Shown piece after piece: positions 18,023 through 23,320 of a stretch of 27,202 nucleotides of DNA. Numbering within the stretch: position 1 is the first letter of the stretch; each line of letters begins with the position of its first letter. Source of the stretch: a virus (lineage: Duplodnaviria > Heunggongvirae > Uroviricota > Caudoviricetes); IMG/VR virus record IMGVR_UViG_2541047882_000005. The stretch is one strand, 5' to 3'. The position numbers and the translations under genes were made by a program. The notes under the pieces are model-generated. The model searched no databases. It was not told where the DNA came from and was given only the letters and a program-made list of their open reading frames with translations.

Positions 18023-18655
18023 ATGGAAGTCAACAAAAAGCAGCTGGCTGACATTTTCGGTGCGAGTATCCGTACCATTCAGAACTGGCAGGAACAGGGA
18101 ATGCCCGTTCTGCGAGGCGGTGGCAAGGGTAATGAGGTGCTTTATGATTCTGCCGCCGTCATAAAATGGTATGCCGAAAGGGATGCTGAAATTGAGAACG
18201 AAAAGCTGCGCCGGGAAGTTGAAGAACTGCGGCAGGCCAGCGAGACAGATCTCCAGCCAGGGACTATTGAGTACGAACGCCATCGACTTACGCGTGCGCA
18301 GGCCGACGCACAGGAGCTGAAAAATGCCAGAGACTCCGCTGAAGTGGTGGAAACCGCATTCTGTACTTTCGTGCTGTCGCGGATCGCAGGTGAAATTGCC
18401 AGTATTCTCGACGGGATCCCCCTGTCGGTGCAGCGGCGTTTTCCGGAACTGGAAAACCGACATGTTGATTTCCTGAAACGGGATATCATCAAAGCCATGA
18501 ACAAAGCAGCCGCGCTGGATGAACTGATAAAGGGGCATCCGTCTACGGAAAGCCGGTGGCCAGCATGCCACGTAAGCGAAACAAAAACGGGGTTTACCTT
18601 ACCGAAATTGGTACGGATACCGCGAAAGAGCAGATTTATAACCGCTTCACACTGA
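18023..18655 (+). pseudogene. Terminase small subunit Nu1, lambda-like for 169 codons then fused to out-of-frame sequence
   Basis: MEVNKKQLADIFGASIRTIQNWQEQGMPVLRGGGKGNEVLYDSAAVIKWYAERD.. matches lambda Nu1 through ..AALDELI (18529); the last 41 residues are unrelated (reading the A C-terminal region out of frame). Confidence 0.8.
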
Positions 18656-18987
18656 CGCCGGAAGGGGATGACCCGCTTCCCGGTGCCGTTCACTTCCCGA
18701 ATAACCCGGATATTTTTGATCTTACCGAAGCGCAGCAACTGACTGCTGAAGAGCAGGTCGAAAAATGGGTGGATGGCAGGAAAAAAATACTGTGGGACAG
18801 CAAAAAGCGACGCAATGAGGCGCTCGACTGCTTCGTTTATGCGCTGGCGGCGCTGCGCATCAGTATTTCCTGCTGGCAGCTGGATCTCAGTGCCCTGCTG
18901 GCGAGCCTGCAGGAAGAGGATAGTGCAACAACCAACAAGAAAACACTGGCAGATTACGCCCGTGCCTTATCCGGAGAGGATGAATGA
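18556..18987 (+). pseudogene. C-terminal fragment (about 140 codons) of terminase large subunit A
   Basis: ..RKRNKNGVYLTEIGTDTAKEQIYNRFTLTPEGD.. ending ..[16 protein letters not shown] matches the C-terminus of lambda gpA; no N-terminal ATPase/nuclease region present. Confidence 0.8.
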
Positions 18988-19190
18988 CGCGACAGGAAGA
19001 ACTTGCCGCTGCCCGTGCGGCACTGCATGACCTGATGACAGGAAAACGGGTGGCAACGGTACAGAAAGACGGACGGCGAGTGGAGTTTACGACCACTTCC
19101 GTGTCTGACCTGAAAAAATACATTGCTGAGCTGGAAGTGCAGACCGGCATGACACAGCGACGCAGGGGACCTGCAGGATTTTATGTATGA
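18984..19190 (+). CDS. W: Head-tail joining protein W
   Basis: 68 aa, [36 protein letters not shown].., full length for lambda gpW. Confidence 0.85.
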
Positions 19191-19903
19191 AAATGTCCAC
19201 CATTCCCACCCTTCTGGGGCCGGACGGCATGACATCGCTGCGTGAATATGCCGGTTATCACGGCGGTGGCAGCGGATTTGGTGGGCAGTTGCGGGCGTGG
19301 AACCCACCGGGTGAAAGTGTGGATGCAGCCCTGCTGCCCAACTTTACCCGTGGCAATGCCCGCGCAGACGATCTGGTACGCAATAACGGCTATGCCGCCA
19401 ACGCCATCCAGTTGCATCAGGATCATATCGTCGGGTCTTTTTTCCGACTCAGTCATCGCCCAAGCTGGCGCTATCTGGGCATCGGGGAGGAAGAAGCCCG
19501 TGCCTTTTCCCGCGAGGTTGAATCGGCATGGAAAGAGTTTGCCGAGGATGACTGCTGCTGCATTGACGTTGAGCGAAAACGCACGTTTACCATGATGATT
19601 CGGGAAGGTGTGGCCATGCACGCCTTTAACGGTGAACTGTTCGTTCAGGCCACCTGGGATACCAGTCCGTCGCGGCTTTTCCGGACACAGTTCCGGATGG
19701 TAAGCCCGAAGCGCATCAGCAACCCGAACAATACCGGCGACAGCCGGAACTGCCGTGCCGGTGTGCAGATTAATGACAGCGGTGCGGCGCTGGGATATTA
19801 CGTCAGCGAGGACGGCTATCCTGGCTGGATGCCGCAGAAATGGACATGGATATGCGTGATGCACTGGATGCACGTAAATCCCGTCTCTCAGGAGGGCGAA
19901 TGA
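19187..19903 (+). pseudogene. Portal protein B, N-terminal about 220 codons only
   Basis: [36 protein letters not shown].. matches lambda gpB up to ..PQKWTWI (about 19850), then reads into C sequence out of frame. Confidence 0.85.
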
Positions 19904-20535: not shown

Positions 20536-20951
20536 GTTTTGCCCTGAAACTGGCGCGCGAGATGGGGCGACCCGACTGGCGCGCCATGCTTGCCGGGATG
20601 TCATCCACGGAGTATGCCGACTGGCACCGCTTTTACAGTACCCATTATTTTCATGATGTTCTGCTGGATATGCACTTTTCCGGGCTGACGTACACCGTAC
20701 TCAGCCTGTTTTTCAGCGATCCGGATATGCATCCGCTGGATTTCAGTCTGCTGAACCGGCGCGAGGCTGACGAAGAGCCTGAAGATGATGTGCTGATGCA
20801 GAAAGCGGCAGGGCTTGCCGGAGGCGTCCGCTTTGGCCCGGATGTGAATGAAGTTATCCCCGTTTCCCCGGATGTGGCGGACATGACGGAGGATGACGTA
20901 ATGCTGATGACAGTATCAGAAGGGATCGCAGGAGGAGTCCGGTATGGCTGA
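20517..20951 (+). CDS. Tail assembly chaperone T reading frame (reached from G by -1 frameshift)
   Basis: Slippery heptamer GGGAAAG at 20511-20517 near the end of G; downstream -1 frame is open for 144 codons ending next to the H start. Confidence 0.6.
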   Translation: MFDGELSFALKLAREMGRPDWRAMLAGMSSTEYADWHRFYSTHYFHDVLLDMHFSGLTYTVLSLFFSDPDMHPLDFSLLNRREADEEPEDDVLMQKAAGLAGGVRFGPDVNEVIPVSPDVADMTEDDVMLMTVSEGIAGGVRYG

Positions 20952-21204
20952 ACCGGTAGGCGATCTGGTCGTTGATTTAAGTCTGGATGCGGCCAGATTT
21001 GACGAGCAGATGGCCAGAGTCAGGCGTCATTTTTCCGGTACGGAAAGTGATGCGAAAAAAACAGCGGCAGTCGTTGAACAGTCGCTGAGGGGAATACCAA
21101 CATCTCCGGTGTCACGGTGGTGTTCCGTGCCGGTGAGCAGGAGCAGACACCGCCGGAGGGGTTTGAATCCTCCGGCTCCGAGACGGTGCTGGGTACGGAA
21201 GTGA
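20944..21204 (+). pseudogene. Tape-measure protein H, N-terminal about 48 codons only
   Basis: MAEPVGDLVVDLSLDAARFDEQMARVRRHFSGTESDAKKTAAVVEQSL matches lambda gpH start; after about 21089 the DNA is J sequence in another frame. Confidence 0.75.
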
Positions 21205-23045
21205 AATATGACACGCCGATCACCCGCACCATTACGTCTGCAAACATCGACCGTCTGCGCTTTACCTTCGGTGTGCAGGCACTGGTGGAAACCACCTCAA
21301 AGGGGGACAGGAATCCGTCGGAAGTTCGCCTGCTGGTTCAGATACAACGTAACGGTGGCTGGGTGACGGAAAAAGACATCACCATTAAGGGCAAAACCAC
21401 CTCGCAGTATCTGGCCTCGGTAGTGGTGGATAATCTGCCGCCGCGCCCGTTCAACATCCGGATGCGCAGGATGACGCCGGACAGCACCACAGACCAGCTG
21501 CAGAACAAAACGCTCTGGTCGTCATACACCGAAATCATCGATGTGAAACAGTGCTACCCGAACACGGCACTGGTCGGCGTACAGGTGGATTCGGAGCAGT
21601 TCGGCAGCCAGCAGGTGAGCCGTAATTATCATCTTCGCGGGCGTATTCTGCAGGTGCCGTCGAACTATAACCCGCAGACGCGGCAATACAGCGGTATCTG
21701 GGACGGAACGTTTAAGCCAGCATACAGCAACAACATGGCCTGGTGTCTGTGGGATATGCTGACCCACCCGCGCTACGGCATGGGTAAACGTCTTGGTGCG
21801 GCAGATGTGGATAAATGGGCGCTGTATGTCATCGGCCAGTGTTGCGACCAGTCGGTGCCGGACGGTTTTGGCGGCACGGAGCCGCGCATCACCTGTAATG
21901 CCTGGCTGACCACACAGCGTAAGGCGTGGGATGTTCTCAGTGATTTCTGCTCGGCGATGCGCTGTATGCCGGTATGGAACGGGCAGACGCTGACGTTCGT
22001 GCAGGACCGACCATCAGATAAGGTGTGGACCTATAACCGCAGTAATGTGGTGATGCCGGATGATGGCGCGCCGTTCCGCTACAGCTTCAGCGCCCTGAAG
22101 GACCGCCATAATGCCGTTGAGGTGAACTGGATTGACCCGGATAACGGCTGGGAGACGGCGACAGAGCTTGTGGAGGACACGCAGGCCATTGCCCGTTACG
22201 GTCGTAACGTCACGAAGATGGATGCCTTTGGCTGTACCAGGCGGGGGCAGGCGCACCGAGCCGGGCTGTGGCTGATTAAAACGGAACTGCTGGAAACGCA
22301 GACCGTGGACTTCAGCGTGGGTGCCGAAGGGCTTCGCCATGTACCAGGTGATGTCATTGAAATCTGTGATGATGACTATGCGGGGATCAGCATCGGCGGG
22401 CGCGTGCTGGCGGTGAACAGCCAGACGCGGACACTGACGCTCGACCGTGAAATCACGCTGCCATCCTCCGGCACCACGCTGATAAGCCTGGTTGACGGGC
22501 AGGGTAATCCGGTGAGCGTGGAGGTCCAGTCCGTCACCGACGGCGTGAAGGTGAAAGTGAGCCGGGTTCCTGACGGCGTTGCCGAGTACAGCGTGTGGGG
22601 GCTGAAGCTGCCGACGCTGCGTCAGCGCCTGTTCCGCTGTGTGAGTATCCGTGAGAACGATGACGGTACGTATGCCATCACTGCCGTGCAGCATGTACCG
22701 GAGAAAGAAGCCATCGTGGATAACGGGGCGCACTTTGACGGTGACCAGAGCGGCACGGTGAATGGTGTCACGCCGCCAGCAGTTCAGCACCTGACCGCAG
22801 AAGTCACCGCAGACAGCGGGGAATACCAGGTGCTGGCGCGCTGGGACACGCCGAAGGTGGTGAAGGGGGTGAGCTTTATGCTTCGCCTGACCGTGGCAGC
22901 GGACGACGGCAGTGAGCGGTTGGTCAGCACGGCCCGGACGACGGAAACCACATATCGCTTCACGCAGCTGGCGCTGGGAAATTACAGGCTGACAGTCCGG
23001 GCGGTAAATGCATGGGGACAGCCGGTGCACATACCCATTCGATGA
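21117..23045 (+). pseudogene. Internal fragment of tail-tip / host-specificity protein J (about residues 60-755 of lambda J)
   Basis: ..VFRAGEQEQTPPEGFESSGSETVLGTEVKYDTPITRTITSANIDRLRFTFGVQ.. through ..[11 protein letters not shown]; lacks the J N-terminus and receptor-binding C-terminus; reading frame starts at GTG and is out of frame with H'. Confidence 0.85.
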
Positions 23046-23320
23046 CATTTGTTTCAGGTGGTTCCAGTGGTGCTCCGGGAAGTGGATCACCTGATTATTC
23101 TAAATACAGTGTTAACACTTCTTCTGCAGGCGCTCATACGCACTCTGTATCGGGTACTGCTGCAAGCGCAGGTGCACACGCACATACTGTCGGTATTGGT
23201 GCTCATACGCACTCCGTTGCGATTGGTTCACATGGACATACCATCACCGTTAACGCTGCTGGTAACGCGGAAAACACCGTCAAAAACATCGCATTTAACT
23301 ATATTGTGAGGCTTGCGTAA
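23012..23320 (+). pseudogene. C-terminal fragment of side tail fibre (Stf)
   Basis: His-rich repeats ([27 protein letters not shown]) and terminal ..[15 protein letters not shown], the conserved tail-fibre C-terminus; fused to J' at about 23019. Confidence 0.75.

Follow-up and report, generated by a model that had tools for sequence, protein, structure and literature searches.

The stretch of DNA analysed here (IMG/VR record IMGVR_UViG_2541047882_000005; 27,202 nt at its full length, hereafter the window) is the cryptic lambdoid prophage Qin of Escherichia coli, from its integrase gene to the truncated ydfJ. Its late operon, for packaging, head and tail, lies at the normal chromosomal site in a rare E. 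coli lineage and is very probably a decaying pseudogene array, neither a working device nor a selected one. As far as the window is concerned, this amounts to the usual decay of a cryptic prophage at a known locus, and NCBI PGAP already labels these late genes pseudogenes. The non-randomness lies in where the breaks fall, that is, in hot spots, and not in which genes survive. This pattern of recurrent breakpoints is what most merits further work (no description of it was found in the literature searched), and the value of the locus is that it offers a well-resolved series of deletion states at one site.

The identity of the prophage follows from its position and its gene content. The window is 100% identical to strain TB06053 (NZ_CM129847) and to one human isolate, and two more genomes hold the same sequence with insertion sequence (IS) insertions; the allele is present in four independent complete genomes and one metagenome contig, and therefore it is not an assembly artefact. 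On comparing the annotation of NZ_CM129847 with K-12, the integration site was found to be the one expected of Qin, between rspB and the 5'-truncated ydfJ, with the gene order rspB-int...relBE-hokD-cspBFI-ydfT-essD-rrrQ-nohA...tfaQ-pinQ-ydfK-ydfJ'. The cargo and late genes typical of Qin (relBE, hokD, cspB/F/I, ydfT, essQ/D-rrrQ-rzpQ, gnsB, ydfO, ynfO, nohA, tfaQ and pinQ) are all present, and window positions 7031-18529, covering relBE-hokD-csp-ydfT-lysis-nohA, are 99.9% identical to K-12 Qin over 11.5 kb, with the same flanks.

Five deletions in the late operon

Window positions 17000-25000 were compared by blastn with phage lambda (NC_001416), and the junctions were placed by three-way alignment against lambda and against a closer, complete Qin-type module. 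The span 17834-23885 is colinear with the lambda left arm except for five clean deletions. Six colinear blocks were obtained with 94-98% identity (E = 0 or ~1e-165), namely 17834-18535 (lambda 1-703), 18528-19852 (lambda 2177-3501), 19852-20184 (lambda 5294-5626), 20182-21089 (lambda 9780-10687), 21085-23025 (lambda 15668-17608) and 23171-23885 (lambda 21824-22538). An earlier note on this DNA, made from the sequence alone, had proposed a lambda-type morphogenesis module cut by at least five internal short-homology deletions, and the six blocks and five simple junctions agree with the positions listed there; the segments are not colinear with an intact smaller phage. The likeness to that arm extends to the gene order, the nucleotide identity of each kept block, cosN and the G-T frameshift site, while the window lacks ~17 kb of it, the summed loss over the five deletions. 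None of A, B, C, D, E, FI, FII, Z, U, V, H, M, L, K, I and J is complete; A, B, C, G, H and J survive only as fragments, and nothing is left of D, E, FI, FII, Z, U, V, M, L, K, I and lom. In the absence of a complete set of head and tail genes from A to J, no virion can be formed from the window.

All five junctions, read on the plus strand, are of the same simple kind. The Nu1|A' junction (J1, 18528-18529) has TA as microhomology and a deletion of 1,481 bp, and its left side lies in a recurrent hot spot, GAACTGATA^CC. The B'|C' junction (J2, 19852) has a 1-nt overlap (A) and is out of frame, with 1,793 bp deleted and GGATA^CC as its left site. The C'|G' junction (J3, 20182-20184; CAG) removes ~4,153 bp and is in frame, and H'|J' (J4, 21086-21089; TGAG) removes 4,744 bp (4,985 bp versus lambda), is out of frame and has its right site at nt 165 of gene J. 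The J'|stf' junction (J5, 23019-23022; CAGC), with 5,163 bp deleted, is the oldest of the five. Each junction has 1-4 nt of microhomology and none has filler DNA; if the ends had been joined at random, a microhomology summing to 14 nt over five junctions would have P = 2.8e-4. In the three-way alignments, the five junctions showed no inversions, duplications or templated insertions. Simple junctions, few shared bases, no filler and partners that are colinear in the parent are the marks of microhomology-mediated (illegitimate) deletion. To judge from this junction anatomy, the five deletions are best explained as ordinary RecA-independent short-homology events, each of which would have fused two points of a formerly complete Nu1-to-stf module; the proposed mechanism is that a DNA 3' end is joined, or switches template, by way of terminal microhomology.

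The surviving pieces are all on the plus strand up to tfaQ. The cosN site (17822..17845) is intact, with the nick at 17833/17834 and the sequence GGTTACG|GGGCGGCGACCTCGCGGG identical to lambda, whose left end starts at 17834. The small terminase gene nohA (Nu1; 18023..18529; 'terminase small subunit' in PGAP) is native to nt 511 of 546 (codon ~170), and its open reading frame (ORF) continues out of frame through A' sequence to 18655 (210 aa). It is followed by A', the 3' 460 nt of the large-terminase gene at its endonuclease end (18530..18987), W (18984..19190; 68 aa) and B', the first 666 nt of the portal gene (19187..19852), the frame of which continues to a stop at 19903. The C'/Nu3' fragment (19853..20184; C nt 877-1209) is part of a chimeric C'-G' ORF of 231 aa (19840..20535) that starts at an ATG within B' sequence; this in-frame chimera had been recognised in the earlier note, as had the G-T -1 slippery heptamer GGGAAAG (20511..20517), which is intact and as at lambda 10109. 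Then come the T reading frame (20517..20951; 144 aa), H', the first 146 nt of the tape-measure gene (20944..21089), J' (21090..23022; J nt ~165-2104), which is open in the J frame, stf', the last ~300 nt of the side tail fibre gene (23023..23320), and tfaQ (23320..23895; 191 aa). Only W and tfa had been thought to be full length. Both are (67/68 and 184/191 residues as in lambda), though the T frame is full length as well, with 142/144 residues identical to lambda. The serine recombinase gene pinQ (23993..24583; 196 aa) is intact on the minus strand. RefSeq marks the J fragment (window 21084-23021) with an internal stop; a J-frame translation from 21087 gave 648 codons and no stop.

Order of the deletions and other Qin alleles

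Junction probes of 160-180 bp were searched against 5,426 complete E. coli genomes. J5 was found in 91 genomes, J1 in 5, and J2, J3 and J4 in 4 each, the same four genomes for all three. From these counts it was concluded that J5 is old, J1 younger and J2-J4 youngest, so that the deletions arose stepwise: J'|stf' was the first, Nu1|A' the second, and B'|C', C'|G' and H'|J' were the latest. For these three the counts give no order among themselves, or relative to the NCTC9040 variant. NCTC9040 carries J1, J5 and a B'|J' deletion across the J2-J4 region, a state that could be a derivative or a sister of the window type. In a gut-metagenome contig (L073), all five junctions were found together with a sixth deletion of 928 bp inside J', which indicates that decay is still under way. 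A complete nohA-A-W-B-C-D-E-FI-FII-Z-U-V-G-T-H-M-L-K-I-J-lom-stf-tfaQ-pinQ module is present at the same ydfJ site in Z1323CEC0015 (NZ_CP148423); its insertion site and flanking genes are those of the window, and it was taken to stand in for the undeleted ancestor. All five junctions are absent from it, and as it is 96-99% identical to the window, it is not the direct ancestor. The comparison among E. coli genomes that the earlier note had proposed thus yielded both intermediate and alternative deletion states. That all five deletions arose from one complex rearrangement is unlikely. J2, J3 and J4 do always co-occur, as a single event would have it, but J5 is found without the other four in ~86 genomes and J1 without J2-J4 in NCTC9040, and the junctions lack the inversions, duplications or templated insertions of such an event.

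The size of Qin has been reported to range from 11 to 97 kb across strains, with no breakpoints given (Ramisetty and Sudhakari 2019, PMC6379469). The alleles compared here differ widely in what they keep. In 1332KP, A+246 is joined to L, and L, K, I and J' are kept; CP61_Sichuan has three other deletions and keeps W, B, C', D, E, FI and FII; 2018-10-1CC and LZYWN_4 keep A, W and B'. The remaining alleles join nohA directly to a distant partner: nohA|J+631 in FDAARGOS_1337, nohA|J+1798 in the FORC064 type (many genomes), nohA+394|J+166 in 160-11H1, where the first 130 nt of tfaQ are also lost, and nohA+529|stfQ in K-12. Nothing of A through H is retained in FORC064, FDAARGOS_1337 or K-12. The K-12 prophage shares with the window its chromosomal site and its cos-nohA and stf'-tfaQ-pinQ flanks, yet it has the single nohA(+529)|stfQ deletion and no A' through J', where the window retains five fragments; conversely, the window lacks nohA nt 512-529 and ~780 bp of stfQ, both present in K-12. 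As K-12 keeps nohA nt 512-529 and the window keeps A' through J', the two must be independent descents from a fuller ancestor.

These alleles bear directly on the view, put forward in the earlier note, that the residue of cos, W, G/T and tfa is non-random and was kept by selection, the deletions having abolished the virion while sparing useful fragments. W, the T frame and tfa are indeed intact and the slippery site is preserved; moreover, cos-nohA (to nt 394 at least) is retained in all Qin variants examined, and the stf 3' end, tfaQ and pinQ in all but one (160-11H1). An anti-phage role of PinQ has been published (PMC12529663), and this activity may explain the keeping of the stf'-tfaQ-pinQ end. 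W and G/T, however, are missing from most Qin variants, and the retained subset differs by lineage; even among the 91 genomes sharing the oldest deletion, J5, only 4-5 have W and G/T with the window junction set. The ORFs are short and the deletions recent (the carriers are 100% identical), so that intact frames are expected by chance, and the reading frame is broken from B' to C' and from H' to J'. Selection of the residue is hence very unlikely. Since each Qin lineage keeps different fragments or none, W and G/T were concluded to be accidental survivors, and the ORFs that remain (W, the C'G' chimera, which includes the slippery site, and the T frame) would be accidental by-products of the deletions; the fragments are probably neutral. 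A phage satellite or cos-packaged island was also considered and rejected, as the structure varies in nearly every lineage and the content consists of lambda pseudogene fragments.

Several points weigh against this account of simple neutral decay by ordinary short-homology deletion. The reference module is only 96-99% identical and thus a proxy for the ancestor, and microhomology lengths may be off by one base. Weak selection may act on some fragment, for example the C'G'-T frameshift product or tfaQ/stf', and dN/dS on the fragments is uninformative because the four genomes with all five junctions are identical here. Lastly, the recurrence of breakpoints shows that the process is not simple random breakage.

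Recurrent breakpoints at the 3' end of nohA

When the 3' ends of nohA were aligned across the variants, three distinct deletions were seen to begin within 3 nt of each other. The site comprises nohA nt 509-513 (window 18527-18531, lambda nt ~697-701; GAACTGATA^C^C^GGGG) and includes the left breakpoint of J1 at window 18529; it lies ~10 nt upstream of the A start codon. Two further deletions at this site were found in other prophage types, DLP12-like (B-1109) and att-bio (strain 573). Pattern scans of IMG/VR, in which the 21-mer of the site had to be succeeded by a base other than the native one, yielded 15, 2 and 7 loci, 5 of which are single-nucleotide alleles of the intact gene and the remainder junctions; equivalent control scans, one 15 nt upstream, one 15 nt downstream and one at a nearby AATATA, found no loci (0, 0 and 0). 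In a scan of viral and metagenome collections, positions 508-517 were treated alike and the results pooled with the five genome-derived junctions. This gave ~25 distinct junctions in at least three prophage types (Qin, DLP12-type and att-bio; loci include L016-L039, L051 and L058-L073), with 16 crossovers at position 511, 5 at 513, 2 at 512, one each at 509 and 510, and none at 508 or 514-517 (chi-square 89.8, 9 df). The partners are scattered over A, B, E, Z, I, J, lom and stf, and the microhomology of 0-5 nt is always made up of the terminal bases of the kept nohA side. Among the ~25 events there were no inversions, and no junction kept the right side of the site alone. A probe for the intact site found an intact copy in 3,745 of 4,062 matching E. 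coli records, and all 5 of the truncated records that were sampled stop at the hot spot; a scan of genome contigs for hot-spot junctions gave no match. The recurrence of breakpoints is robust in three independent collections, and no hot spot of this kind was found described in the literature searched.

Other breakpoints are re-used as well. At least six coincidences within 3 nt were counted, versus ~0.4 expected by chance (approximate 51 endpoints; P ~3e-6). A+245/246 is shared by 1332KP and CP61, B+629-635 by NCTC9040 and 2018-10-1CC, J+165/166 by J4 of the window and 160-11H1, and J+2259 by 573 and B-1109. Two sites serve on either side: J+631-635 (GCTA|CCCG; in J' of the window, ~21555) is a right end in NCTC9040 and FDAARGOS and a left end in L073, and Z+87/88 is a left end in CP61 and a right end in L027. 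The stfQ partner site of K-12 is re-used in L065. Many of the re-used crossovers fall at TA followed by (T)CC, which tentatively suggests a TA-(T)CC motif, whereas J3, J4 and J5 of the window (CAG, TGAG and CAGC) form a second, generic class. GATACC was rejected as a sufficient motif; it occurs 11 times in the module, where 3 of the copies coincide with breakpoints (one being the left side of J2) and one alone is a strong hot spot. The re-used breakpoints belong to independent deletions with different partners (loci include L073, L005, L007 and L015).

It is possible, and is proposed here tentatively, that the nohA 3' end of lambda-type prophages is a sequence-determined fragile or stall site that seeds rightward deletions of the A start, leading to convergent 'decapitation' in Qin, DLP12-type and att-bio prophages, and that, together with TA|CC-type sites (A+245, B+632, J+632, Z+87), it channels E. 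coli prophage decay through specific DNA sites and not through random breakage. A DNA 3' end or break that arises again and again at nohA 509-513, and is then joined to a downstream point by any terminal microhomology at hand, would be consistent with the data, because one end is fixed, the partners are variable and there are no inversions. If endpoints truly concentrate at a few short sites, random-deletion models of prophage domestication need revision, and convergent gene loss could pass for shared ancestry or selection; lambda, which bears the identical site, would then be an easy experimental system for finding the cause of the break in vivo.

The clustering might alternatively be an illusion of selection or sampling, in which only deletions that keep a functional NohA and remove A survive, so that endpoints gather at the nohA/A boundary. 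Every hot-spot event does keep nohA and remove the A start, and the site is close to the A start codon. The nucleotide precision, with 25 junctions at nt 509-513, 16 of them at one position and none at 514-517, is nevertheless beyond what selection would give; the control scans were empty, and viable alleles with other endpoints exist (nohA+394, nohA+529, A+245, B+151 and others), which makes this explanation improbable. Still less probable is that a site-specific recombinase, PinQ or the prophage integrase, made the deletions, or at least the TA crossovers, on pseudo-sites, the hybrid sites staying active and thereby being re-used. Re-use of the same sites with different partners, one site serving as left and right end, the common TA at crossovers and the intact pinQ and integrase genes of this prophage all speak for it. 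Against it, the crossovers at the hot spot are spread over 5 nt, and at some junctions (L023, L035, L051 and L058) the homology is no more than 0-1 nt; ~25 events include no inversions and never keep the right side; the partner sites have no common extended dyad motif; and hot-spot events also occur in DLP12-type and att-bio prophages. Recombinases of the Pin/Gin/Hin kind use a fixed 2-bp core in a ~26-bp dyad site, as opposed to the variable crossover and lack of inversions seen here. Furthermore, the published PinQ site TTGGTTTGGGAGAAGG, unlike the hot spot in sequence, has no copy anywhere in the window with up to 3 mismatches; on this evidence, any PinQ activity would have to act elsewhere in the genome, as reported for K-12.

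The fragile or stall site proposed above has parallels among known deletion hot spots, such as those at terB/Tus replication arrest and in gyrase-mediated illegitimate recombination, in both of which one end stays constant while its many partners share scarcely any homology with it, or none. In contrast to terB/Tus, nothing resembling a Ter sequence is apparent at the nohA site. RusA cuts 5' of CC, and RusA acting on regressed forks, or a replication pause, are ideas for the cause.

A number of other candidates were tried and set aside. The gyrase motif spans 130 bp and is too degenerate to be scored from sequence. A hairpin with a 9-bp imperfect stem places the crossover at the 3' loop/stem border, and its fold is no better than those of shuffled sequences (z = 0.46). 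The nearest match to Chi, GCTGGATG, differs from it at two positions and is wrongly spaced (judged by eye), and restriction-type sites (CCNGG/CCSGG) are too frequent elsewhere and lacking at the other hot spots. IS-linked deletion with the IS-excision enhancer protein was rejected, as the junctions contain no IS and one and the same insertion site would be required in several prophage types. A PinQ pseudo-site was likewise rejected; besides the absence of the published site, the hot spot resembles gix/pix weakly, and a hand alignment predicts the crossover at 514-515, where there is none.

Some individual junctions are of interest in themselves. In the metagenome contig L065, nohA GATA| is joined to the exact stfQ position (ACCGCGCTGAC...) of the K-12 (L003) nohA(+529)|stfQ junction, which is either an 18-bp secondary deletion of the K-12 allele at the hot spot or a second event on the same partner site. 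In L026 and L051, deletion at the hot spot has put nohA in frame with the J C-terminus or with gene I, so that long chimeric ORFs result.

Annotation and early region of the window

In the RefSeq record of the identical genome, the early part is annotated as rspAB, int, xis, relBE, hokD, cspB/F/I, ydfT (Q), essD-ydfR-rrrQ-rzpQ, gnsB, ydfO and ynfO. The late part is given as terminase small subunit, gpA endonuclease subunit, W, partial portal, partial S49 peptidase, partial gpG, T, a hypothetical partial gene (H'), partial J, partial tail fibre, tfaQ, pinQ, ydfK, ynfT and ydfJ'.

The early region differs from that of K-12 Qin. The dicC-dicA-dicF-dicB region has no counterpart in the window, and the K-12 segment from ydfX through ydfE is unmatched; this is an allele difference and no ground to reject the identity as Qin. 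Where K-12 Qin has dicC-dicA-dicF-dicB-ydfABCDE, window positions 1180-3363 and 3643-7030 hold other DNA, with exonuclease and DUF977 pseudogenes, an S-adenosylmethionine (SAM) methyltransferase and an ISNCY transposase fragment. Unlike K-12, in which intQ is a pseudogene, the window lacks the dicA-dicF-dicB region and has an intact integrase and excisionase at ~20-1590.

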